From assembly GCF_044704955.1 (NCBI RefSeq), contig NC_092002.1, forward strand, positions 3,224,001-3,288,000: 64,000 nucleotides of DNA, written 5' to 3'. The notes beneath the pieces are model-generated. The model was not told the DNA's origin, searched no databases, and saw nothing but the letters and a program-made list of their open reading frames with translations. The first letter of the stretch is position 1. Each line of letters opens with the position of its first letter. Source of the stretch: Pristiophorus japonicus. Lineage: Eukaryota. This document shows, piece by piece, positions 3,363 to 61,491 of the stretch. A program made the position numbers and the translations under genes.

Positions 3363-4125
3363 ACACAAGACTACTCTCCGCAACCTGTCTCCTGGTTTAA
3401 CAACCCTCATCCCCTGCCCCCTGATATTGTTCCGAATTCCGGCTCGCTTACGGGGCAAATACGCTCAGGAAGTTGTCAATGATTATTACCCGGGGTGCTC
3501 CACATGGGTCCGGTTAGATGTGTAATGAGGATGTTCCTGGCCAGGACCTCCCCCACCCCCGAGGTTCTCGGCCCCACGGGGACACTCTCTGCTAGCTGAC
3601 CGCACCCTTGAAGGGAGGCAGCCATTAGACTCCGTGCCCCCCGGGGCTAGGGGAGTTCATCCGCCCGGGTCCCTGCCCCACTTTAGCTCTCCGGCAACAC
3701 CTGCCCAAAACTGGATGAGGGGCGAATATCAGGCAGGGGTTCTCCCTGTATCTCCTGTCTCCCCGTCCCATGTCTCCCCCCATCCCGTGTTCAGAAGGGG
3801 GGGTCTGATCAGAAAATGGTTTGTTTTTTTACACACCCAGTGATGGTATTTTCTCTATTTTTGCAGGAATTGAGTTTTTTGCCGTGGCGTTTCTGGGAGA
3901 TTCCCGGATCGAACCCAAATCAAGGAGCGGGGGGGAGGACTGCAAATGCAACAGGGTGAGGGACGCGATGGCTGCTCAGACCGTTCTCCGTGTTCCCGGG
4001 TACCGGCCTCCGGTGAGGGATTCGATTAGCCCTCACCCCCTCGCCAGGCACTCGTGCTAAACCCACCACCGATCGGCGCTTCGAGTCGGAGGAGACGTGG
4101 ATTGCCGCTCGCGGCCTGGAGAACA

Positions 4126-5412
4126 ATGTCACAGGCGGGCGAGGAGAAGCGAGCCGTCAGGCCCAAGGTCCGGCGGGGAGAGCCCGAAGACCGGCGAGAA
4201 TCCCGCAGCAAGAAGAAGAACAGGAATTCCCACAGGTCCGAACTGTGCGGCGGCGCTTCGGGAACCGGGCAGGGGAAGGTCAGGAACGCCTCGGGCGGGA
4301 AAGCGGGAAAGCAGGACACGGATGTGTCTCAGGAGACGGATTCCCACGACTTTGGGGAGGACAAGCTGCCGAGCCGGACCCTGAGGCAACGTATCCAGGA
4401 CGCCGTGGGCCAGTGTTTTCCCATCAAATCCCACGGCCTGCACTCCGCCATCTTATCCTCCTCCAAGCGTAAGATCCACCTGAGCGAACTGATGCTCGAT
4501 AAGTGCCCCTTCCCCGCTGGCACCGACCTGGCCCAGAAGTGGTACCTGATCAAGCAGCACACAGCCCCCGTCTCGCAGAGCCCGCCCTTCCTGGACGGGG
4601 CCTCCGCGGGAGGGACGCCGGTCGAGGACGAGGACGACCGCCTGCGGGAGAGGAGGCGCATCAGCATCGAGCAGGGGGTCGAGCCCCCGCCCCACGCGCA
4701 GATTCACACCTTTGAGGTGACGGCCCAGATCAACCCCCTGTACAAGCTGGGGCCCAAGCTGGCGCCGGGGATGAACGAGCTGGCTGGTGACGATCGGGCC
4801 ACCCTGTCGCTGCAGGAGGCCGAGGAATCAGCGGCCCCGCCCTCTCCCCAGCCCCCCCCCGAGCAGGTGGAGTCCACCGACGGCTATCGCGCCCACACCC
4901 AGATTGACTACATCCACTGCCTGGTGCCCGACCTGCTGGAACTCACCACCTTCCCTTGCTACTGGGGGGTGATGGACCGCTACCAGGCCGAGGCCCTGCT
5001 GGAGGGCAGGCCGGAGGGGGCCTTCCTGCTGCGGGACTCGGCCCAGGAGGACTACCTCTTCTCGGTCAGCTTCCGCCGTTACAGCCGCTCCCTGCACGCC
5101 CGCATCGAGCAGTGGAACCACAACTTCAGCTTCGATGTCCACGACCCCAGCGTCTTCCACGCTCCCACCGTCACCGGCCTACTCGAACACTACAAGGACC
5201 CCAACTCCTGCATGTTCTTCGAACCCCTGCTCTCCAGCCCCATCAACAGGACCTTCCCCTTCAGCCTGCAGCACATCTGCCGGGCAGCCATCTCCAGCTG
5301 CTCCACGTATGACGGCATCGACCTCCTCCCCATCCCCAGCACCCTGAAGGAATACCTGAAGGAATATCATTACAAGCAGAAGGTCAGAGTGCGGAGGCTG
5401 GACACCAGGTGA
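4126..5412 (+). CDS. Suppressor of cytokine signaling, SOCS4/5 subfamily (SOCS9/SOCS5-like), 428 aa, single coding exon
   Basis: First in-frame ATG is at 4126 (acaATGt), downstream of a splice acceptor ttttgcag|3867. Contains the N-terminal conserved region ([44 protein letters not shown]), an SH2 domain ([27 protein letters not shown]) and a SOCS box (FSLQHICR...[12 protein letters not shown]). Confidence 0.93.
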
Positions 5413-5612
5413 TAGCGCTGACCGACAGAAAACTGCTGAAAACTGACCTCTTCGAACCACCCGAGACCGAAGATCAACTTTAAGTAACGACTTTCTTAAC
5501 CGTAACTATTTATTTGAAGAATCCTGGACTGCAATATCCGCAATCTTAACCCAACAATGGGTCTTTTTTGTGCGAATTCTGTGGTCACCAAAGTATTGCA
5601 CCATAAAGCACT

Positions 5613-6236
5613 GGTTAGATACAGAGTAAAGCTCCCTCTACACTGTCCCATCAAACACTCCCAGGGCAGGTACAGCACGGGTTAGATACAGAGTAAAGCC
5701 CCCCCTCTACACTGTCCCATCAAACACTCCCAGGGCAGGTACAGCACGGGGTTAGATACAGAGTAAAGCTCCCTCTACACTGTCCCATCAAACACTCCCA
5801 GGGCAGGTACAGCACGGGGTTAGATACAGAGTAAAGCTCCCTCTACACTGTCCCATCAAACACTCCCAGGGCAGGTACAGCACGGGGTTAGATACAGAGT
5901 AAAGCTCCCTCTACACTGTCCCATCAAACACTCCCAGGGCAGGTACAGCACGGGTTAGATACAGAGTAAAGCCCCCCCTCTACACTGTCCCATCAAACAC
6001 TCCCAGGGCAGGTACAGCACGGGTTAGATACAGAATAAAGCCCCCGCTACACTGTCCCATCAAACACTCCCAGGGCAGGTACAGCACGGGGTTAGATACA
6101 GAGTAAAGCTCCCTCTACACTGTCCCATCAAACACTCCCAGGGCAGGTACAGGGGGTTCGATACAGAGTAAAGCTCCCTCTACACTGTCCCATCAAACAC
6201 TCCCAGGGCAGGTACAGGGGGTTCGATACAGAGTAC
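5613..6236. repeat. 67-68 bp tandem repeat, about 9 copies, in the putative SOCS 3' UTR
   Basis: Unit GGGTTAGATACAGAGTAAAGCTCCCTCTACACTGTCCCATCAAACACTCCCAGGGCAGGTACAGCAC. Confidence 0.95.
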
Positions 6237-8319
6237 CCTCCTCCCAAACCTCACAACAGTAGGTTTCCCCCCCATCCCCACTGCACCAACGGGATATCTT
6301 ATCCATTTCCTCCACCCTTGATGCAAATGAATGCCCAATTGGGACTCATTTCACATGGGACCCCCATTCCCACCTCATCAACCCTGACTGCACTGAAAGC
6401 CAGGTCTCAGTGTCTACCCGACTGCATAGCCCGCCCCACGTATTATCTTTATTGACTAGATTCCCACCCCCCCCACACCCGTCTCACCTCAGTTTGATCT
6501 GTAACCCAAACTTTGTAACTTTGAGAAGTATGGGTGCTCGATAAGACTGAAGATACAAATGTCAATGCGGACCACTGTCGAGAGCTGCTTTAGAACAGGT
6601 TTATTTGCTAAAATTATGCGGTGCGAATATGGACCATGTTATTTGCGGGTAGTTGACTGGACACCGTAACCACAGACTCCACCGCCATCGATTGACCGAG
6701 TCACCTACGGCACAAGGTGCACGGTCCCGTCGGCCTGTGCTGCTATTGAGTGGAACAGAATCTTAATCTTCGCCCATGAGAGTCGCGGTGCATGTCATTA
6801 AATGCTGACGGGTGCTTAATCTCATCGAGTAACTCTCCAGTGGTCCAGCGGGTAAACCGCCGTGTGTTTCGGTCCTGAGACATTTGTGCCCGGTCCCAGT
6901 CTATCCCAAGTTTGATGATCTCGGTCGGGATCAGAGATTGTGGGGGTGGGGTCACTGCACCAGTCCTCAGCACCCCTTAGGCTAAGGGGAGACAACATTC
7001 CCGATCCCGATTAGTATCCAGCGACCCCCCTCCACTCCACGCTGCAAGGTGGGCGAGCATGGGATTGGCCTTGACCATGGTGCCCCCCCCCATGTTCAAA
7101 TAGCCCGTGGTCACCCGCTGTCTCGGCTGCGACACGGGTCACTTGCGATGTGGTTGCACAAACCCTACTTGGGACACCACCCGGGGAGACTTGATACTAA
7201 GGTCACTGGATAACGGCTGGTTGAAGTGGTTCGATGAGGTTTCAATCCCTGAGCTGCCCGTTACTCTGTATTATGTATAGTTACGTTTTTCACCTGTGTC
7301 ATTCTTTGATAAAAAAGAGCCTTTGAACAAACGCTGAGAGCGCGAGTGGCAAAAGAAAGAGTTTAAATGATGCAAAGTGCTTTTGTGGCCTCTGACGGTT
7401 GCCACTTCGATGAATCAAAGCCAGAACTGAGCTCAACCAGCGTCCCTCTGTTCGTCGAGCTTATTGGGCAGGGTTGTTGCACGTGGCCCGATACACTTTG
7501 ATGGTCCAGTGAGCTTTGGTCAAATATCGTAATGGAGGCAGACGTTTACTGAGCAAGAGGGAGACCCCTTCTATTATATGCACATACACCAGGGCCTGGG
7601 ATTTCCGCAGGGATTCTTTCCAACCCCACGGAAACTTTGGTGCAAGATCGGCTGTTTACCGTGGGGTCTCCGCTGTAATCACGGCCAGGGATCCGCGCGC
7701 GTAAGTTCTACCCCCAGAGTGTTTCGCGCCTCAAGTGTGTGTCCAACACACTCCTGCGTCACAACTTGTCACAGACGTAAAAACTGGAGAAACCCCAGTC
7801 ACCCTGAAATTTACAAGCAGTTGCAATTGCCCTCTCACTGACCTCGGTGCATTATGAGTAGCTACAGGGACTTAAGATTGTCCATTTGGGGCTTAATTTT
7901 GTTTGATCATCGCTCCTGTGAAGCATCTTGTGATTTCCTTACGTTAAAGGCGCTATATAAATGCAAGTTGTTGTAAAGGGACAGGCCAGATTATCAGCTA
8001 AACATCATAACCTGAGACTATCTGTGAGCAATGCCACGGGAGATCTATCAGCAACCAATGCAAGTTTTGAGCCGCGTCACTCGCTAAGCAGTATAGGTAA
8101 GAGCGGTCGCCCTTGGCAGGAATCCTGGTGATATGGCAAGAGAAGCAAATAAGGGAAATAAAAGCAAGTTGAGAGACAACAAGATGAACAGATACTTCAC
8201 ATCGGGGGCTGTGACAGTGTCACTCGGAGCCACAGTGACGGGAAAAGTCGGTCGTCTCTTGTGTGTTTCAGCGACTGGGAATCCTGGTTCTGCTGGTTGC
8301 CTCCCCACCGAGACCGAGT

Positions 8320-16061: not shown

Positions 16062-16504
16062 TTACTTTTTCTTCTGCACGTGTGCACAGTCGTACTTCCC
16101 GCGCACGACCTTGAGCTTGACCCCTGGCAGGTCCTGGGTCCTCCCGCCCTCCACCAGCACGATGTTGTGTTCCTGTAGGTTGTGGCCCTCGCCCGGGATG
16201 AAGCAGATGGCCTCCCGACCGTCACTCAGTCTCACCCGGGCACACTTGCGGTTGGCCGAGTTGGGCTTCTTCGGTTTGCGCACCATGGTCTTCAGCACCA
16301 CCCCCTTGAGCTGCGGCCGGCCGCAGGTGGGGCCCAGCTTGGTCGGCTGGCGCTTGGCCTTGCCCTGCTTGTGCATCTGGTGCAGGGTGGCCATGGCTCG
16401 GCTGCTCTGCCGGCAGGCAGGAAGAGGAGGAGGAACCGCTGCTCCTGGCAGGAAAGCTCGCGGGAGGAGGGAAGCTGCCGCGGTCCCGGTCAGTCTCGCT
16501 GCTC
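16062..16504 (-). CDS. MRPS12: Mitochondrial ribosomal protein S12 (uS12m), last coding exon
   Basis: MATLHQMH...[33 protein letters not shown]...[38 protein letters not shown]. Acceptor tttccctctag| is phase 1. ATTAAA signals at 16043-16048 and 16027-16032 on the minus strand. Confidence 0.97.
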
Positions 16505-26020: not shown

Positions 26021-26097
26021 GGATTGGGGAACGTGGGCTGGATGTGATTAATGAGATTGTTTGATTGCAGCGATGCACCTCAGCCTGAGCGGTGCTG

Positions 26098-26391
26098 ATG
26101 TGGAGCCACAGGAGTAACGGGACGGCCTGGGTTGCTGAGATGTGGAAGTATGTGACGAAGAGAGATGATAAAACGATTGTGTGCAGCATCTGTGGCCAGG
26201 AGCTGGCACTTTCCGGCAGTGCCACCAGCCTCCGGCTGCACCTGGAGCGCAGTCATCACATCCACTTCCGCGAGGACTCTGAGCGCAGTAAGCTGCAGGG
26301 AGCGGAGAGTGTCACGGAGCGCATTCCTGGCTGTCCCAGCGCCAAGGACAGGACTCCGAAGATCACAGAGCTCATTGGGATAGACAGCCCT
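26098..26391 (+). CDS. ZBED-like gene, first coding exon encoding BED zinc finger 1
   Basis: Acceptor tttgattgcag|26071, ATG at 26098. [39 protein letters not shown] fits the BED pattern W-x-Y...CxxC...HL-x3-H. Donor cct|GTGAGT is phase 0. Confidence 0.8.
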
Positions 26392-26444
26392 GTGAGTCAT
26401 CGTACCAAACTTAAACATAACTTCAGAATTGTGAGGCGGTGATG

Positions 26445-27448
26445 GCTGGGGTACAGTCTCACACACACTGACCCTCACTGGGGTACAGTCCCACACACAC
26501 TGACCCTCATTGGGGTACAGTCCCACACACACTGACCCTCACTGGGGTACAGTCCCACACACACTGACCCTCACTGGGGTACGGGTCCCACACACACTGA
26601 CTCTCACTGGGGTACAGTCCCACACACACTGACTCTCACTGGGGTACAGTCCCACACACACTGACTCTCACTGGGGTACGGGTCCCACACACACTGACTA
26701 TCACTGGGGTACGGGTCCCACACACACTGACTCTCACTGGGGTACGGGTCCCACACACACTGACTCTCACTGGGGTACGGGTCCCACACACACTGACTCT
26801 CACTGGGGTACAGTCCCACACACACTGACTCTCACTGGGGTACGGGTCCCATACACACTGACTCTCACTGGGGTATGGGTCCCACACACACTGACTCTCA
26901 CTGGGGTACGGGTCCCATACACACTGACTCTCACTGGGGTATGGGTCCCACACACACTGACTCTCACTGGGGAACGGGTCCCATACACACTGACTCTCAC
27001 TGGGGTATGGGTCCCACACACACTGACTCTCACTGGGGTACGGGTCCCATACACACTGACTCTCACTGGGGTATGGGTCCCACACACACTGACTCTCACT
27101 GGGGTACGGGTCCCACACACTGACTCTCACTGGGGTATGGGTCCCACACACACTGACTCTCACTGGGGAACGGGTCCCACACACACTGACTATCACTGGG
27201 GTACGGGTCCCACACACACTGACTCTCACTGGGGTACGGGTCCCACACACACTGACTCTCACTGGGGTACGGGTCCCACACACACTGACTCTCACTGGGG
27301 TACAGTCCCACACACACTGACTCTCACTGGGGTACAGTCCCACACACACTGACTCTCACTGGGGTACGGGTCCCATACACACTGACTCTCACTGGGGTAT
27401 GGGTCCCACACACACTGACTCTCACTGGGGTACGGGTCCCACACACTG
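26445..27448. repeat. 32/33-bp minisatellite, about 30 units, abutting a tRNA-derived SINE head (about 27450-27525, minus strand)
   Basis: Unit CTCACTGGGGTAC(GG/A)GTCCCACACACACTGACT. Confidence 0.95.
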
Positions 27449-27769
27449 CGGTGCTCAAGTCCCTGGAGTGAGGACGAACCCACGACCTGCTGACTCCAGG
27501 GTAAGGGAGCTGCCCCATGTGCCACGGCCAACACATAAATAATCCCCACATTCGAATAATCCATTCACAGTTGGCGAGTGCTGTGCCAAAGGGAACGTGG
27601 AGAGGAGCAGTAAGCCGGATAGTGACATGAGGGAGAAAGGAATAGAAGGAGATGGTGATGGGCTGAATGGCCTATCGCGATGTAATTCTATCAGCAGGAG
27701 TCCCTGCATTCTGGGGATGGGGAGGGGGGAGGCAAGGGGTGAATTTTGCCGGTGAAGTGCCCCCTCCCT

Positions 27770-27993
27770 CAATCTCTCCCCCCTCCCTCTCTCCCTCACT
27801 CCCCCTTGCTCTCACCCCTCCTCCCTCCCTCTCACCCCCCTCCCTCCCTCTCACCCCCCTCCCTCTCACTCCCCCTACCTCCCTCCCTCTCAACCCCCTC
27901 CCTCCCTCTCACCCCCCCTCACTCCCTCTCACCCCCCTCCCTCCCTCCCTCTCACTCCCCCTCCCTCTCACTCCCCCTCCCTCTCACTCCCCC
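27770..27993. repeat. Pyrimidine-rich (CCCT/CTCA) low-complexity repeat running into the assembly gap
   Basis: Seen directly in the sequence. Confidence 0.85.
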
Positions 27994-28601
27994 NNNNNNN
28001 NNNNNNNNNNNNNNNNNNNNNNNNNNNNNNNNNNNNNNNNNNNNNNNNNNNNNNNNNNNNNNNNNNNNNNNNNNNNNNNNNNNNNNNNNNNNNNNNNNNN
28101 NNNNNNNNNNNNNNNNNNNNNNNNNNNNNNNNNNNNNNNNNNNNNNNNNNNNNNNNNNNNNNNNNNNNNNNNNNNNNNNNNNNNNNNNNNNNNNNNNNNN
28201 NNNNNNNNNNNNNNNNNNNNNNNNNNNNNNNNNNNNNNNNNNNNNNNNNNNNNNNNNNNNNNNNNNNNNNNNNNNNNNNNNNNNNNNNNNNNNNNNNNNN
28301 NNNNNNNNNNNNNNNNNNNNNNNNNNNNNNNNNNNNNNNNNNNNNNNNNNNNNNNNNNNNNNNNNNNNNNNNNNNNNNNNNNNNNNNNNNNNNNNNNNNN
28401 NNNNNNNNNNNNNNNNNNNNNNNNNNNNNNNNNNNNNNNNNNNNNNNNNNNNNNNNNNNNNNNNNNNNNNNNNNNNNNNNNNNNNNNNNNNNNNNNNNNN
28501 NNNNNNNNNNNNNNNNNNNNNNNNNNNNNCGCCACTCCTTTCTCCCCCTCACCAGATGGGCTTTGAGCCAATGATTAACGCTGTCCCTTCATTCCCTCGA
28601 G

Positions 28602-28737
28602 GTAACGATCACGACGCATAGCAGCAAGAGGATCTCGGAAATGCTGCGCGAGTGTGCGGCCCGACTGGAGGAGGACGAGGACCCGGAGATCCACTCCTTT
28701 GCGGGGGGCAGAGAGTCCCACGCAGCACTGGCTGAAG
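28602..28737 (+). CDS. Candidate internal exon of the ZBED-like gene (VTITTHSSKRISEMLRECAARLEEDEDPEIHSFAGGRESHAALAE)
   Basis: Open and coding-like. Donor gaag|GTATAG is phase 1, matching the final exon. The acceptor would be an unusual GAG after a pyrimidine tract. An alternative exon 28556-28601 also fits the phases, and the upstream gap could hide other exons. Confidence 0.5.
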
Positions 28738-29221
28738 GTATAGTCACTGCACGGTTACAGTAAATCTCGGCCGTGTTTGCTGGACGCACTCTTGGTCTTT
28801 TTCGTTTTGTTGCTTTAAACGTCAGAGTGTTGCTGAATCCACGGGGACACTGGGAGTGTGTGTAGTCAGTTCTACAGGATTACTGTTGTGATCGGGAACA
28901 CGCTGCCTGAAAGGGCGGTGGGAGCAGATTCAGCAGTAACTTTCAAAAGGAAATTGGATAAATACTTGATGGGGAAACATTTGCGGGACTGTGGAGAAAG
29001 AGCGGGAGGAGTGGGACTGATGGATGGCTCTGTCACAGAGCCGGCACGGGCTCGATGGGCCCAATGGCCTACTTTGCTGAACAGACCGGGACTCGTTCCT
29101 CTAGGAAAGAGAAGGCCGAGGGGATGGCCTGATCACGGTCTTCAAGGTTATGAAGGGGTTGCGATAGCGTAGACGTGGAGAAGATGTGTCCGCTTGTGAG
29201 GGAGACAAGAACTCAGGGTCA

Positions 29222-29590
29222 TCAACAACAACATTGTATTTATATAGCGCCTTTAACATAGTGAAACATCCCAGGGCGCTTCACAGGTGTGTTGTGTGAT
29301 AAAAAGATTTGACACCGAGCCACATAAGGAGAAATTAGGTGACCAAAAGCTTGGTCAAAGAGGTAGGTTTTAAGGAGGGAGAGAGGCGGAGAGGTTTAGG
29401 GAGGGAGTTCCAGAGCTTGGGGCCCAGGCAACAGAAGGCACGGCCACCGATGGTGGAGCGATTATAATCAGGGATGGTCAGGGGGGCAGAATTAGAGGAG
29501 CGCAGAGATCTCGGGGGGGTTGTGGGGCTGGAAGGGATTACAGAGATAGGGAGGGGCGAGGGCCAGGGAGGGGTTTGAAAATCAGGATCA
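29222..29590 (-). mobile_element. L2-like LINE 3' fragment
   Basis: Same family as 9142-9845, with (CAA)n + TATTTATATAGCGCC tail on the plus strand. Confidence 0.8.
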
Positions 29591-29807
29591 ATATCAGACA
29601 GTCACTAATAAATCCAACAGGGAATTCAGGAGAAACTCCTTTACCCAGAGAGCGGTGAGAATGTGGAACTCGCTGCCACAGGGAGGGGTTGAGGCGAATA
29701 GTATCGATGTATTTAAGGGGAGGCTGGATAAACACATGAGGGAGAAAGGAATCGAGGGATATGGTGATGGGGTGAGATGGAGAGGGGTGGGAGGGGGCTG
29801 GTGTGGA

Positions 29808-30050
29808 GCATAAACCCCGGCACGGACCGTGGGGCATAAACCCCGGCACGGAGCGGTGGGACATAAACCCCGGCACGGAGCGGTGGGACATAAACCCCGG
29901 CACGGAGCGGTGGGGCATAAACCCCGGCACGGAGCGGTGGGACATAAACCCCGGCACGGAGCGGTGGGACATAAACCCCGGCACGGAGCGGTGGGACATA
30001 AACCCCGGCACGGAGCGGTGGGACATAAACCCCGGCACGGAGCGGTGGGA
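29808..30050. repeat. 27-bp tandem repeat (about 9 units) arising within a CR1-like 3' UTR (CR1 fragment about 29610-30065)
   Basis: Unit GGAGCGGTGGGACATAAACCCCGGCAC. Compare the unamplified GTGGAGCATAAACGCCGGCATGGAC at about 44152. Confidence 0.9.
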
Positions 30051-30131
30051 CCGATCGGTCTGTGTCTGTGCCGTAACACTCGATGTTCTGATTCTGTGAG
30101 CTGGACCTGATGGTTTGTGTGTTTTCCACAG

Positions 30132-32101
30132 ACGAGCTCTCCATGGTCCTGAGGTATCACGGGGGCAACGGGGGGTCCCGGAGGCGGAAGGGGACCGAGC
30201 CCAACTACAGGCGCAGCTCGCCCGTCAGCGGCCGGGACAAGTCACGGGCCTGGAACTTCTTCAAGAAGCTGAACGAGCGATGCGTGGAGTGCAGCCTGTG
30301 CCGGACACAGCTCTGCTACCATAGCAGTGCCACCAGCCTGCGCGAGCACCTGAGGCGCAAGCACAACCTGAGCGAGCTGGACCTGTGCCAGTGCCTGGAG
30401 GAAGGGTCCTCGTCCTCCGAGTCCGCGGGCCAGGACCCCAACGCCAACAAGAACAAGGCGCCGAGCATCTCGGACCTGGCGTTGCACGAGCCCAAGCCCT
30501 GCGCGGAGAACCGGGAGGAAGTGATCAGCGACCTGATCCTGGGCCTGGTGTTCCGCGACCTGCAGCCCCTGTCTCTCGTCGGCCATGAGGGCTTCAAGCG
30601 GCTGCTGGGCTTCCTGGAGCCCGCGTACCCGATGCCGTCGAGCGCTCACCTCGCCACCGGCCTCAGGCACAAGTACGGCCTGGCCAAGCTGCAGCTGGAA
30701 CGCGGCCTGCGCTCGGCAGTGTCCCTGACCCTCTCCACCGACACCTGGACCTCGCCGGACAAGCAGGGCTACCTGACCGTGGTGGCGCACTTCATCGACT
30801 GCGGCTGGAGGCCGGCTCGCTGCGTCCTCCGGACCAGCCCGCAGCCCACCCCGGCCCCCGAGCTGACCGGCGAGCTGCTGCGCTCGGCCCTGAGCCACTT
30901 CGGCCTGCCCAGCACGGCAGTCAGCTGCGTGGTCCACGACAGCGCGGGCGGGTTGCTGGGCTGTGCCCGCTCGCTGCAGGACCGTTTCGGATGGTGCAGC
31001 CTGTGCTGCGCGTCCCGCACCCTGCAGCTGTGTGTCAAGCTGGGGCTGCAGGTGGAGCCGGTGCCCCAGGCCCTGGCCGCTGCCCGCCGGCTGGTCAGCT
31101 ACTTCCAGCACAGCGCCCGGGCAGCTGCCCAGCTCAGTGGCCAGCTGGCCGCGAGGGACAGGCAGCGGCCCGGCCTCCTGGTCATGGACACGGCCAGTCG
31201 CTGGAGCAGTACCTTCGACATGTGCGAGCAGCTGCTGGAGGCGCGGAGGGCCCTGGGCGCGGTGCTGGAGGATGACCCCGCTGCCAACCCCACCATCCAG
31301 AACCTGTCCGACCAGCAGTGGAAGTTGCTGCAGGACTTGCTGCCCATCCTCAGGACCCTGAAGGTGGCCTCGTCCTTCCTGGGCGAGGAGCAGAACGCCT
31401 CCGTCTCCTCGCTGATGCCCTGCCTCCACGGGGTGATGACGGCCCTCATGCACCACCACGGCGACCCCGGCTGCATCGTCAAGATGGTGAGCACCAAGAT
31501 CCGGGCCGAGATCGGCAAACGCTGGCACCTGCCCGAGGAGCAGGAGCTGCTGGAAAACCCTGCCATCGTTGCCTCCTTCCTCGACCCGCGCTTCAAGGAC
31601 CTGCGCTTCCTCAACCCCGAGGCGCGGGACGAGGTGCACAACAAGGTGAAGAACATGCTGTCGGGCAGCGCCTGCAGGCCCCGCTCGCCCAGCCCCTCCT
31701 CCTCCTCGTCCTCCGACGGTGAGCGCGGCAGCAAGCGGCAGGGGGGCCGGGACCCCGGCCAGTGCCAGTACGACCTGCTGTTCGGCGAGGACCCCTCCGA
31801 GAGTCTGCCCGAGATCCACCAGCAGCTGGAGGGCTACCTGTCCGAGCCCCTGCGCAGACGGCACACCGACCCCTTCAACTGGTGGCGTGGCAACGAGCAC
31901 CGCTTCCCGGCAGTGGCCGCGCTGGCTCGCCGCTACCTGGCCATCCCTGCCACCTCGGTGTCTGCCACCGCGCCGTTCTTCAGCCCCGGCGCCCTCCCCA
32001 ACCACACCAGGCCTCCTCTGCCACCGGACCTCGTCGACCAGGTCGTCTTCCTGCACAAAAACTTCGATTACGTGGAGTCGCTGAAGAGGTTCAGGCAGTG
32101 A
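30132..32101 (+). CDS. ZBED-like domesticated hAT (Ac-family) transposase, terminal exon: BED finger 2, RNase H-like core and hATC dimerisation domain
   Basis: Acceptor gttttccacag| is phase 1. Motifs: SRAWNFF...CSLC...SLREHLRRKH (BED), DLQPLSLV..EGF..LL..LEP.Y, LSTDTWTS, YLTVVAHFID, VHDSA, CASRTLQL, SRWSSTFDM, ASFLDPRFK, DPFNWWR....FP.VA.LARRYLAIPATSV. The 656-codon frame is uninterrupted with very high GC3. Confidence 0.93.
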
Positions 32102-32987
32102 GGGCCCCTGCCCTGGGACGTATTCATTTCGTCGTCTCTCTCTCCTCGTCTTGTTTATAAATTGGGGGCTTGTTTCGACCTCCCTCCCCAGGAGCTGACT
32201 CGCGATGACCTTTCAGTTCCCCACAGGCTCCGGCCGCTCTCCCGTAACCCGGCCGTACTTCACCGGCCAGAGTGCCGGCCGATCGGCCAAGGCAGGCATC
32301 ACAGCTGAGCCCCAGCTTGTCCTGCGATTGGAAGCTGGAAACCTGGCTCCTCTCTCCCCTAGATAAACCAGAATGGAACCCCCCTCCCCACATCGCCCCC
32401 CTCCAGCCTGCGATCAGACAGCCCAGCACAGACCAGGGCTCACCCCCGGATAAAACCTTCCAATGTCTCTTCAGTGGATTTTAACAAGTGGCTTCTCCAA
32501 AGCCCTCGATAAGTTCACTGAAAGAACCTGCATTTCTATAGCGCCTGTCGTGTCCCCGGGACGTCCCAAAGCATGAAGTACTTTCTGAAGTGTCGTGACT
32601 TGTTGTTATGTACAGTGTCATTGTAATGCGGCCAATGTGTGAACAGCAAGATCCCACAAGCAGCAGTGAGATGAACGGCTCGGGTCCAGTGTCGAATGGT
32701 GATCGGGATTTGCCGTACGCAACGCGCCCTGGTCCCGAGGGCCTTTGTCGGGACAGCCCACCGCGAGCCATGCCCGGCAAGGCAGCTTCTGTTTCCGTTG
32801 GGTTACAAAAGGCAAGACTTTGGGGGAAGTTGTCTCTTTGCCCAGATCTGTAGCTGGAACCCGGCAGGGCAGCTGAGGCCATTTAAGGAACAGCTGGATA
32901 GAATCGGATGGGCTGAATGGACTCCCTCGTCCACACTGACCCCTGAGTGTTCCCGGGAGCCGCAAAATCATCAAAGCTTCAAATAAA

Positions 32988-33216
32988 AGACAGACTTGCA
33001 TTTATATAGCGCCTTTCACGAGGCACCGGATGTCTCAAAGCCAATGAAGTACTTTTGGAGTGTAGTCACTGTTGTAATGTGGGAAACGCGGCAGCCAATT
33101 TGCGCACAGCAAGCTCCCACACACAGCAATGTGATAATGACCAGATAATCTGTTTTAGTGATGTTGATTGAGGGATAAATATTGGCCCCAGGACACCGGG
33201 GAGAACTCACCTGCTC
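32988..33216 (-). mobile_element. 5'-truncated Deu-domain SINE
   Basis: Tail and Deu 3' half match the other copies. Confidence 0.85.
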
Positions 33217-34202
33217 GTCGTGTATGAAAGAACTGCTGAATAAGTGGACCGCTACCCAGTCCCACAGACACTACTGACTGTCCGCTCGCTCGCCACACAT
33301 TGTGTTTCAGGGACGGAGAAGGAAATTCTCATACAAACTAATAAACAAAATAAAGCTGAGCCACGTGCCCGGTGGAGCTGTGGCTGTTTGCTCTTTATAC
33401 GGTGACTCGATGACACAGTATCTCCATCGCTTGCTTGCCTCGTGATTCAAAGCCTGTCAAGTGGATTTTGTGATGTTTGGTGGAGAATTGTTCCAAAGCT
33501 GTGCTGGAGTGGCGATGAGAGTCTGGTGGGCAAAGTGTAGATTAATCCTGCTCCCTGCAAAACAGGCGGAGATCAACAACGACCCTTGTGTTTTGTGCCA
33601 TGTTCCCCGTGGCTGATGTACCTGCTTCGTGCTGCCGAGGAAGGTGTGCCCAGGGCTCTCAGACTGTACAGTCACCAGGCACTGCCCCCCTGTGACACTG
33701 GCTTCTGAACAATCATCGCCGCCCCTGGTTGGGAGTCTAGGACGAGGGGACATAGCCTAAAAATCAGGAGTGAAGTTAGGAAACATTTCTGCTCCACAGA
33801 GAGGTAGAAGTTTAGAACTCTCTTCCGCAAACAGCAATTGATGCTAGATCGATTGTTAATTTTAAATCAGAGATTGATAGCTTTCTGTTCACCAAAAGTA
33901 TCAAAGGGATATGGGGCAAAGGCGGGTATATGGAGTTAGGTTGCAGATCAATCATGGTCTTATTGAATGGCAGACAGGCTCGAGGGGCTGTCTGGCCTCC
34001 CACTGTTCCTGTGTTCCCCCCTCGCTCCAAGGCAGGGAGGGGCTGTAGCCTCGGCTCAGAAAGGTCGGTGTCTCCTGAACACTGTGACCCTACGCACTGT
34101 CACAGGAAGGCATGGCAACCCTCCACTTTATCCCGGTAAAGAACGTGTGTCAGCGATTAGCTTATTGAGGTCCGTGTTCTCCGTCCCACTGGCCCAGCCA
34201 CA

Positions 34203-57850: not shown

Positions 57851-58878
57851 TTTGTTGGATGCGCAGATATAATGGTAAGTACTGCAGGGAATAGAATACA
57901 GCCAAGGTGATCTCCTGGACTAGTGCCGATCACCTGGATGGGTCGGAGAGGAATTTTCCCAGATTTTTTTCTCCCTAAATTGGCTTGGGTTTTATTTGGT
58001 TTTTGCCTCTCCCAGGAGGTCATATGGTTCCGGTTGGGGTGGAGTGTAGAATGTTTCAGTATAAGGGGTGTCGCAGTTGTGTGAGGCAGACTGGTTGGGC
58101 TGGGTGCTCTTTGCCTTTCCGTCATTGTTCATAGGTTTGTATGTAATTTTTAGGACTGCTGACCAAGGGCCGGCGTGGACACGATGGGCCGAAATGGCCT
58201 TCTGCGCTGTAAACTTCTATGTTTCTATGAACATCGGACAGTACAGGACGCTGCAGTCGATCGAGTCAGTTCCAGAAACAATCACCTTTCAATCGCTTTC
58301 TCCCTCAATTATATCTCCAATTCTCTCATAATATTCTCACATTATTTGCCTCCACTGCCACTCTGGGTAACAGTCCCATTCACCACGCTCTGCATAAAGT
58401 GGATCAATCAAAACCATTTGTGCACCTTCCCTCTTCTAACAGACACTTGAACAGACTACAAGCACCCCGGGGTTAGCATTTCACTCCAGGGTCAGCAGCT
58501 GTGACAACATCCCTCCCTCTGTGTTTAGCAGCCCGTGGCTTTTACTCAATGGCTCCCTACAGAGGCATTGCTCTAATTTGATACTTGCATCTCATTGCTT
58601 CCCCGTGCTGTGCGACCCGTATTGCCATGGCCATTTTATAAAACCTCTAACTAATAAAAGAGCCAATCTGCAAATAGCAATAAACAGTAATTGCTCGAAA
58701 TGCGCAGCAGATCCATTCGCCTTTGCAGAGAAAAGATGGGGTAGCGTTTTGAGTACGACAATGTGCCTGCAATACCAAAACGCTGACAGACCTGCTGTGC
58801 ATTTCCAGCTGTTTCTTTATATAAAAGCAGTTTATATTCCCCTTCACTGGCCTGAATGTAAATAGCAGCATTTCTAAC

Positions 58879-59031
58879 CAGCTTTTTTATTTCTTTTCCA
58901 TCTCCGGGACTGTCTGCCTCACGTTTTATCTCCTCTTCCTCAAGCAAGTGTGTTCTTTTCCACTCAAATTTTAGCTGCTTCTTCCAAGTGTAGTAATATT
59001 CCACACACTGTGCCACAGTCTTGTGTTTTAT
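58879..59031 (-). CDS. ZNF541/TRERF1-family gene exon, C-terminal half of the SANT domain
   Basis: gttttacag|IKHKTVAQCVEYYYTWKKQLKFEWKR...KKL|gttaga, phase 0 to phase 0. Confidence 0.9.
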
Positions 59032-61102
59032 CTGTAAAACAGCAGGTCCCATGAATGCAATAGTCCTTTTCTCTTGTCAGGGCCGAGTTTGCGAGTGTGT
59101 GCTGCGAGTGGGGAGGTCTCGCCTGGGCAGCACACACAGGGCCCCTAGGGTTTCCCAATATGGCAGAGTGTGAGGTTCCCAATGGTCAGGGTCATTTGTA
59201 AAATCGGACCTGTAATCTATACCAAGGCCACCTCATAATATTCCATTTTTAAATCATTCATTTATTTAACTTTTAAAAAATTGTTTTGGAGTTGATCAGG
59301 TTGAGGGATGTTATTGCAGTCAGTGCAGCCACCCACTGGTGTTTAAGCTGGACAGTCTCAGCTCTGGCGGCTTCTCACTGCTCAAGTTTTAATAAAGGTA
59401 TTCTGTAATAGTATTTCAATGCCTACTGGCTAGTCTGTCCCAATCTCATCAAAAACTCCCAATCTTAAAACATTAGATATAGAATTAAGCTTCCCCTACA
59501 ACACCCTCCACCCCACCACTTTAAAACAGCAGCTTCTAATAGTTGTGTAGACATCAGCCCTCGCGATGGCCTCTTTGAGGAGAACACCGGTGTGTGCAGT
59601 GAGCTCACAGTTGCAGGAACTAGAGTGCGACAGCCCCTAACTCATTTCATTAACGCTCCTTCCAGCTAGCAGGAAGATGGCTGGATTGGAAGGATGTGAT
59701 AAAATAAACCGAAGGGCCTTCTTCAGCCAAGCCTATTTGTGCAGACACTTCCATTCCGTCAGTCTGGGCTGGATTTAAACCCGAGTTCCACAAATGTAAA
59801 GTCATTCTTTAGCCAGTCCTCTAAAGATTGTCTGCAGCCTCACTGAAATCCCACCAGCTGCAGTCATTTTCTCTTTTGTCACTAGGTGGTAGCAGCAAAC
59901 TGACTTATTACTGTGGAGCACTGCAAGGAATTCTAATAGTGACGATCCATCCTAAGTGCGTCATCAGAGCGGCATTGCCGGTGATTCCCCCCCCCCCCCC
60001 CCATGGTGAAATTCCACCAAAAAAATCTTGACCCCGCTGAGCGGTGCCAAAAGCTGCTTTTTCTGCCGGTGCAGTGAGGTTATAGACCTTGTACAATGGT
60101 GGTGCGGCTCCCATTAAAGGGGAGGACACACTGCCGCTATGTTTTTTTTTTGTCGACCGACTGCTACGTCGGGCTGACAGTTATGCCCCCGGGTTTGGCC
60201 GGGCCGCCAACAGGTAGCCTGGCACCCCCTCTTGGGTGCCAGGCTGCTGGCCCAGCCGAAACCCTCCCTGGTGGCCCAGTGGACAGAACTTTAAAAATCG
60301 CGCGGGCTCTCCGCTTTAAATGAAGGAGCCGAGGTGACATGGTGCCATGATGACGTCACCAGTGCTACGCTGATGACTGACAGCGGCAGACACTCTGCTC
60401 GCCCCCAACATCTGTTCCTCTAGACTCCGAACTTCCGTTTACCACCCTACTTCCACCTTCTGGCCCGCCGGGAAAAAAAGCCAAAGAGCGGAATTTCGCT
60501 CAAGAGACCATCGCATCAACCGCGCCGGTAAAATTAACAGTAACAGGGTAGGTGCGTCCCGTTTCCAGCGGTGGGCAATTTTGGCTCCGCTGTCTTAACT
60601 GCACCATCTTCCATTAAACTCTTGCAAACTCCATAGTGCTGTTGTAAATAGATCACACACTGCTAATAAAGTGCCAGTTTTGTAGTGCTGGCTGAAAAAT
60701 GTTTCAGGACCAGGGACTGAGTGATGCAGTCAATCAGAACAGGGCTCTTTCTCTTCTGCGACCTGAGTTTCCATCCTGTCCAGATCGATAGGGGGAAACT
60801 TTCCTCCCTGTTTACGAACTGTAAAGATTCTAAGTGAAATTACTTTGGACAGGACGCCAATATTCCGTACAAATTGAGATTAAGATGGCAGCGTAGCTCA
60901 GGAAACTAGAAGGCCGACAGCGTGGGGAATGACAATTAGGGGGGGGGGTTCTGTAACAGGCAGGTGATCCACCCCACCAGTTTACTGCCCAAGCAGTGAA
61001 GGGGAAATTACCCCCAAAAATGTTCATGTTATACATAGAATCAATTCTGGCCGAAGTTAACTGCCTTTTATACACTGGCGTTGCTATTTGATTATCTCTT
61101 AC

Positions 61103-61191
61103 CATCTTTTGCATGAGAAAGAAATCCTTGTTGTGAAGACAAATTGCTTTATTGAACATCTTTTTCTCTGCAGCAGTCCACTTCTCAGTAC
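61103..61191 (-). CDS. ZNF541/TRERF1-family gene exon, N-terminal half of the SANT domain (gene continues beyond the window)
   Basis: gaatttag|GTEKWTAAEKKMFNKAICLHNKDFFLMQKM|gtaaga (89 nt, phase 1 to phase 0). Confidence 0.9.
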
Positions 61192-61491
61192 CTAAATTCA
61201 AAAGATACGCACTGAAGAATTCACAGCATAGAGACAGACTGAAAAACCGCAAACGTTACAAGTCTGAAAAGGGAACAGAAAGAGATGGAACTACACAGCA
61301 GGCCAGTCAGCATGTGAGAGGGAAAGTCATTAAATCTCAGTGAGACTCTTCGTCACTGTGTTCTGAAGAAGTGTTCCACTTGAGGCCCGTTCAGTTGCTG
61401 ACTGACTTTCTGTTATTTGCATCATTTTCTGTTTTCACTGCAGATTTCTTACTTTCAGTTTTCATTTTCAGCTGTTTATTTATGGAGGGTT

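Follow-up and report, generated by a model that had tools for sequence, protein, structure and literature searches.

Does an intact hAT transposase frame in a vertebrate genome belong to a mobile element or to its host and, if to the host, which gene is it and what might it do? This question is raised by a locus of the Japanese sawshark, Pristiophorus japonicus, in a window (the whole stretch of 64,000 nucleotides that was analysed; GCF_044704955.1, NC_092002.1, positions 3,224,001 to 3,288,000 of the forward strand, renumbered here from 1). An earlier note, made from the letters alone, had described at 26071-32101 a spliced gene with two BED fingers built from a catalytically dead hAT transposase, and had considered it an old and possibly novel domestication. 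Judged by copy number, splicing and orthologues, it is indeed an old hAT domestication, i.e. a real, single-copy, spliced host gene of an ordinary, well-known kind. However, sequence comparison identifies it as the orthologue of records named zbed4l2 or si:dkeyp-117b8.4 ('Zinc finger BED-type containing 4-like 2'), which fall in the same orthologous group, and the claim of novelty was therefore not borne out. Of interest is less the shark copy, which is in itself unsurprising, than its family, which seems to have been lost in mammals, shows a graded decay of the active site and varies in the extra finger.

A spliced, single-copy host gene

The sawshark gene has three exons on the forward strand, with coding parts at 26098-26391, 28602-28737 and 30132-32101. 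The joined product has 98 + 45 + 1 + 655 = 799 residues, within the 770-800 that had been predicted from compatible phases, and its length and junction residues equal those of UniRef record P0001, a Japanese sawshark protein named 'ZBED1-like'. Exon A (26071-26391), flanked by an acceptor AG ending at 26070 and a donor GT at 26392, comprises a 27-nucleotide leader, the ATG at 26098 and the first BED finger, and ends in phase 0; its MWSHR start is common to other sharks and a sawfish. An out-of-frame ATG lies upstream at 26073, and its 14-codon frame (26073-26117), which overlaps the main start, could dampen translation of the main frame. Intron 1, which contains a gap of 536 N (27994-28529), is followed by exon B (28602-28737), a 136-nucleotide linker exon in phase 0 to 1 that aligns with the N-terminal segment of tetrapod orthologues. 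The coding part of exon C (30132-32101) is the intact hAT exon that had been noticed for its clean acceptor, which ends at 30131; it has 655 codons and a stop and encodes the second BED finger, an intertwined dimer domain, an RNase H-like core with a helical insertion and an hATC domain. Pfam recognizes zf-BED in exon A (E 1e-7), and both zf-BED and Dimer_Tnp_hAT in exon C. This combination of BED finger, hAT-derived core and hATC domain is that of ZBED-type domesticated hAT genes. The G+C content of third codon positions is as high as that of host genes, as had been claimed: exon C has 0.93 and exon A 0.72, compared with 0.87 and 0.84 in the neighbouring SOCS and MRPS12 genes and 0.46 and 0.54 in two frames of long interspersed nuclear elements.

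Intron-free contigs were found in both of two public runs (X1 and X2), which come from one study, are not on record as RNA and may underlie the database gene model. In the X2 contig, exon C follows immediately on the last letter of exon B. The X1 contig (3342 nucleotides) contains exon A sequence, and 274 letters separate its two aligned parts; since 274 is the sum of 140 (rest of exon A) and 136 (exon B) minus 2, the 28602 acceptor is the one used. This decided a choice that had been left between 28556 and 28602: forms of exon B starting at 28556 (46 or 182 nucleotides) would give 184 or 320 letters and were ruled out. The joint between exons A and B rests on this letter count in the X1 contig, not on a direct view.

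The terminal inverted repeats, 8-bp target-site duplications and dispersed copies of active hAT elements were not encountered. A single match to the DNA of exon C was found in the genome of 5.9 Gb, which is a lower bound on copies, and the next-nearest proteins of the sawshark are only 22-27% identical. Three flank comparisons revealed no terminal inverted repeat of at least 11 bp with an 8-bp duplication (one mismatch allowed in each), in agreement with what had been seen by eye, and the inverted repeats close to the gene turned out to be simple repeats.

Orthologues and origin

Family members have full-length scores above 540 bits, whereas no other single-transposase match exceeds about 400, and include the records named zbed4l2 or si:dkeyp-117b8.4 (P0050, P0102, P0273 and P0380; skate, reedfish, cyprinid). 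The orthologues, which are 37-69% identical to the sawshark protein in the first search and were joined by more from further searches, are found in cartilaginous fish (sharks, rays, chimaera), ray-finned fish (bichir, sturgeon, gar, eels, arowana, otophysans, salmonids) and lobe-finned fish and tetrapods (coelacanth, caecilians, salamanders, frogs, lepidosaurs, turtles, alligator, birds). A quick gene tree agrees in most respects with the species tree, except that the sawshark groups with rays, probably as a result of letter make-up. A single genome match and orthologues that track the host tree from sharks to birds are what a domesticated gene would display, and the old domestication proposed earlier has thus held. 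Mammals seem to lack the gene: no named mammal is among the 120 matches listed of 179 for a tortoise query, where a mammalian orthologue should rank high, although the same listing holds 11 unnamed rows (of five examined, one has a bird cluster and the others look bird-like) and a word-based search may miss relatives.

In a tree with 63 other hAT-type proteins, the family comes out as a single clade (100) with a long stem. It resembles ZBED1/hDREF/TRAMP in having a BED finger, an RNase H-like part with an insertion and an hATC domain, with the transposase part in one exon. However, the shark ZBED1 (L004, identified via PDB 2ct5, E 2e-32) is a separate gene on another contig, is about 23% identical to zbed4l2, and keeps the catalytic Glu and CxxH motif that shark zbed4l2 has lost. 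A single clade of zbed4l2 and this ZBED1 was rejected (p-AU 0.0002 in the approximately unbiased test; 22 rows, quick tree, LG+G4), and by this test zbed4l2 is separate in origin from ZBED1 and not a duplicate of it. The earlier idea that the gene might have no mammalian ZBED orthologue stands as far as the listed matches and ZBED1 are concerned.

ZBED4, ZBED6 and ZBEDX are likewise hAT-derived vertebrate genes with multiple BED fingers, of which ZBED6 and frog ZBEDX have two. Two ZBED domestications were described in vertebrates in 2013 (Hayward 2013, PMC3606216), and the neighbours given there for ZBED4, ZBED6 and ZBEDX-C7ORF29 are ALG12, ZC3H11A and LRRC61. None of these was found in the window, where alone the latter two were searched, and the ALG12-family matches lie on contigs other than that of zbed4l2 (C6, C8, C11 and C13, with none on C28). 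The SOCS, MRPS12 and SANT-type neighbours of the sawshark gene are unlike those tabulated for ZBED1, 4, 6 or X, and the S4 tree labels of that paper show no zbed4l2-like clade (PMC3606216). Birds, lizards and frogs have a four-BED ZBED4 besides a one-BED zbed4l2. Such a four-finger gene was not detected in the sawshark genome, where at least five BED matches, all in four genes, were seen with 150 of 275 candidates scored. ZBED4, ZBED6 and ZBEDX sequences were not among the search returns, and the tree does not place zbed4l2 relative to their clade; ESM Atlas returned generic ZBED/hAT clusters only. On balance, zbed4l2 may well represent a third, unreported Ac-family domestication, which would have occurred at the root of jawed vertebrates and been lost in mammals.

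No study of zbed4l2 or si:dkeyp-117b8.4 was found in the literature, although subscription papers and unseen supplements may mention the gene, and the available part of PMC11872487 does not. An apparently unstudied hAT-derived gene that spans jawed vertebrates, is apparently missing from mammals and is mislabelled ZBED1 or ZBED4 by automatic annotation would thus be added to the two domestications described in 2013. Zebrafish has the gene and could be used for knockouts.

Decay of the active site

The key residues of Hermes are D180, D248, R318, W319 and E572 (PMC6027215), and the His of the C/DxxH motif has a catalytic role in hAT transposases (PMC7780238). Hermes is the top fold match of the shark model (Foldseek E 4e-15), and the equivalents of D180 (Asp347, 30740-30742), D248 (Asp413, 30938-30940), R318 and W319 (R500-W501) are retained. 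The CxxH motif, however, reads CASR (31007-31018), with Arg439 instead of His, and Thr756 (31967-31969), in the SVSATAPFFS block at about 31955, occupies the place of E572, so that the DDE triad has become D, D, T. All these motifs lie where the earlier note had put them. Further differences from Hermes and the Ac family are the single copy, the lack of detectable terminal repeats and target-site duplications, and the two added upstream exons. The helix that carries the Glu is predicted to be disordered in the shark protein: region 755-769 was modelled without a helix and with a predicted local distance difference test score (pLDDT) below 50, and in AlphaFold models made with the same 30 helper rows, residues 751-770 scored 49 and 36 in shark, while the coelacanth models had a helix there and scored 90 and 80.

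A census of 108 named family rows chosen from the matches, and of 18 outgroup hATs, revealed that these losses differ between lineages. DDE is kept in five of the 108 rows, and the complete set of D, D, E, H, R and W in two, compared with 16 of the 18 outgroups; these two, coelacanth P0329 and the caecilian P0325 (Geotrypetes), have D, D, CxxH, RW and E-R-x-F. Acidic residues occupy all three places in 73 of 97 bony rows and in none of 11 cartilaginous ones, three of which align poorly there, and an E-D-D arrangement is found in most non-avian reptiles and teleosts. The CxxH His persists in none of 31 teleosts and in two of 22 birds. Asp occurs at the third place only together with Glu at the first (42 rows versus 0/5), but a compensatory swap is not significant (three independent pairs; sign test p 1). 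Residues needed for cutting are thus missing in a lineage-specific way and not throughout the family, so that, as far as sequences tell, the notion of a catalytically dead protein applies to the shark, which lacks His and Glu, but not to the coelacanth and caecilian. Since lineages lack different residues, separate losses after domestication are suggested by the living sequences. The columns for both Asp, His, Arg and Glu have changed 10, 7, 13, 12 and 27 times, respectively, against a median of 12 (585 columns, 105 rows, leaving out P0027, P0048 and P0050, which have shifted or very divergent ends), and the Glu column has changed more often than 88% of the columns have. As a group, the catalytic positions are thus about as variable as the median column, and selection in this family probably maintains something other than cutting. 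A family that runs from a full active site in coelacanth and a caecilian to a lost one in shark makes it testable why ZBED proteins keep DDE residues.

The upstream BED finger

The double BED finger is present in the shark as had been claimed, but it is not a family-wide feature. Two fingers are found in 28 of 147 family entries (eight cartilaginous, 15 cypriniform, three salmonid/esociform and two Denticeps), but no row from tetrapods, coelacanth, gar or bichir has them; tetrapods retain an exon-B-like segment. The upstream finger of chimaera looks worn by eye, and in cyprinids the long isoform has two BED fingers and the short one a single finger. The zebrafish 'ZBED4-like' proteins of 976 (two BED) and 887 residues (one BED) in Zeng 2023 (PMC9859435), which that paper lists only as a comparison, probably correspond to zbed4l2 from their length and layout.

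Pairwise scores between upstream fingers across cartilaginous fish, cypriniforms, salmonids and Denticeps range from 25 to 89, whereas unrelated BED fingers have a median of 64 and a 95th percentile of 99; the shark finger is no closer to those of teleosts than unrelated BEDs are to each other. This hints at separate gains, but a tree on 43 columns of these fingers rejects no grouping (p-AU 0.27-0.72), a single origin included. The upstream fingers of P0356, P0357, P0363 and P0370 (salmonid/esociform and one sucker isoform) belong to a long-loop, ZBED1-like subtype that differs from the gene's own finger, and were possibly captured as exons from other hAT elements.

Predicted dimerisation, proposed function and alternatives

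Among bony vertebrates, the best-kept regions by column conservation are the main BED finger (0.86) and a block at residues ~689-720 (0.90). This family-specific block (~690-720; 31769-31861, forward strand), which lies before hATC, is 64% identical to bony-vertebrate orthologues versus 19% to the 18 outgroup hATs, and is a candidate partner-binding surface. The dimer domain is predicted to be intact in the sawshark protein, and self-pairing is predicted to occur through residues 274-306. A homodimer model of residues 262-345 scored 0.65, compared with 0.01 for the best of three controls, and runs agreed in at least 93% of contacts with pLDDT of at least 74. The mark used is passed by 17 of 29 solved eukaryotic homodimers (animals 7/16) and by none of 30 single chains, but the pass may be a memory of Hermes because only one of seven solved homodimers without an older solved relative passed. 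ZBED1 must self-associate through hATC to bind DNA (PMC7471704), and by likeness self-association would be expected of zbed4l2.

The reading that we favour, and consider probable, is that sawshark zbed4l2 would bind DNA as a dimer through its BED fingers and act as a transcription or chromatin factor, with the transposase core as a scaffold that does not cut. By analogy with ZBED1/DREF, dimerisation would bring the BED fingers onto a DNA site and the ~690-720 block might recruit partner proteins, while the extra finger of cartilaginous fish could lengthen or change that site. Against this reading, neither supporting run is recorded as RNA, and the X1 contig has seven differences to exon C, three silent and four replacing, which are too few to demonstrate purifying selection and show no clear excess of silent ones. 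The four replacing differences would also be compatible with a transposon that inserted recently, is decaying and came to be spliced by chance, but this is next to inconceivable for a single-copy sequence without detectable terminal repeats or target-site duplications, and is already contradicted by the intact orthologues that track the species tree across jawed vertebrates. The earlier note had itself hesitated between a transcription factor, the option preferred here, and a dominant-negative repressor of active hAT transposons that would poison oligomers or block ends. The conserved BED fingers and dimer domain, and the many hAT relics in the genome, would suit such a repressor, which is nevertheless quite unlikely since it would be left without a target. 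A genome scan with an hATC profile gave at least 97 matches, of which only five lie in frames above 500 residues and all five look domesticated; none of 26 relic hAT loci matches the sawshark protein (E 1e-3), and its DNA-binding finger is strongly conserved instead of fast-changing. Active elements may, however, have been missed because 150 of 752 candidates were scored.

The automatic database name implies a SUMO E3 ligase like human ZBED1, which SUMOylates Mi2-alpha (PMC7471704). The domain order is the same and many records are so named, but the name was carried over by similarity, identity to shark ZBED1 is ~23% and a common origin was rejected, which makes this function very doubtful. 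A last alternative is that a working or rewired nuclease site persists in part of the bony vertebrates, having been lost later in cartilaginous fish, and acts on DNA ends or rearrangements, as has been reported for PGBD5. The full residue set of P0329 and P0325, the acidic triad of most bony but no cartilaginous rows, the tie between third-place Asp and first-place Glu, and the Glu helix of the coelacanth model would all accord with this. It is unlikely, however, given the median rate of change of the catalytic columns, the even faster Glu column, the three independent pairs behind the swap and the near absence of His from teleosts and birds; in addition, coelacanth and caecilians are on short branches, making retention by slow drift plausible. 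There is a similarly small chance that zbed4l2 was tamed with an intact active site and that cutting activity survives in the copies of coelacanth and caecilian. The site could then have been disabled in a different way in each of sharks, rays, teleosts and birds, with cartilaginous fish and several teleost lines gaining a BED exon independently. The non-cutting DNA-binding factor remains the reading that we prefer.

Genomic surroundings and other hAT-derived frames

The 3' untranslated region of the sawshark gene likely spans 32102-33354 (forward strand): the X1 contig reaches at least 32560, AATAAA signals occur near 32982 and at 33340-33354, and the end would be placed at the latter. The 5' end of the transcript was not found, and the CpG profile, examined for a head-to-head promoter with MRPS12, gave no clear picture. 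The neighbours in the window are a single-exon SOCS4/5-type gene (4030-5412, forward), an MRPS12 exon (16062-16445, reverse) and a gene at ~58600-61300 (reverse) and on L038, with a weak SANT-domain match (Pfam E 0.04), which we take by its motif to be an ELM2-SANT gene of the TRERF1/ZNF541 type.

The five long hATC frames of the genome are zbed4l2, the ZBED1 orthologue L004, the ZBED-like L002 and L003, and L035. L002 (589-2955) and L003 (874-2919), both on the forward strand, are single-frame, BED-bearing, hAT-derived genes with altered catalytic residues; they are nearer ZBED1 than zbed4l2 in the 22-row tree, L002 being placed differently in a larger family tree. L035 (1771-3324, reverse) is a hAT-like frame of 518 residues without any catalytic residue and presumably resembles the C-terminal exon of ZNF618. 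A hAT transposase of the pig-nosed turtle (P0311/P0136) retains all catalytic residues, and its long isoform starts with what we take to be a KRAB-like motif, likely reflecting a KRAB-transposase fusion. Downstream of the window, L038 contains broken pol pieces of a Gypsy-like long terminal repeat retrotransposon (~5280-7540, forward).

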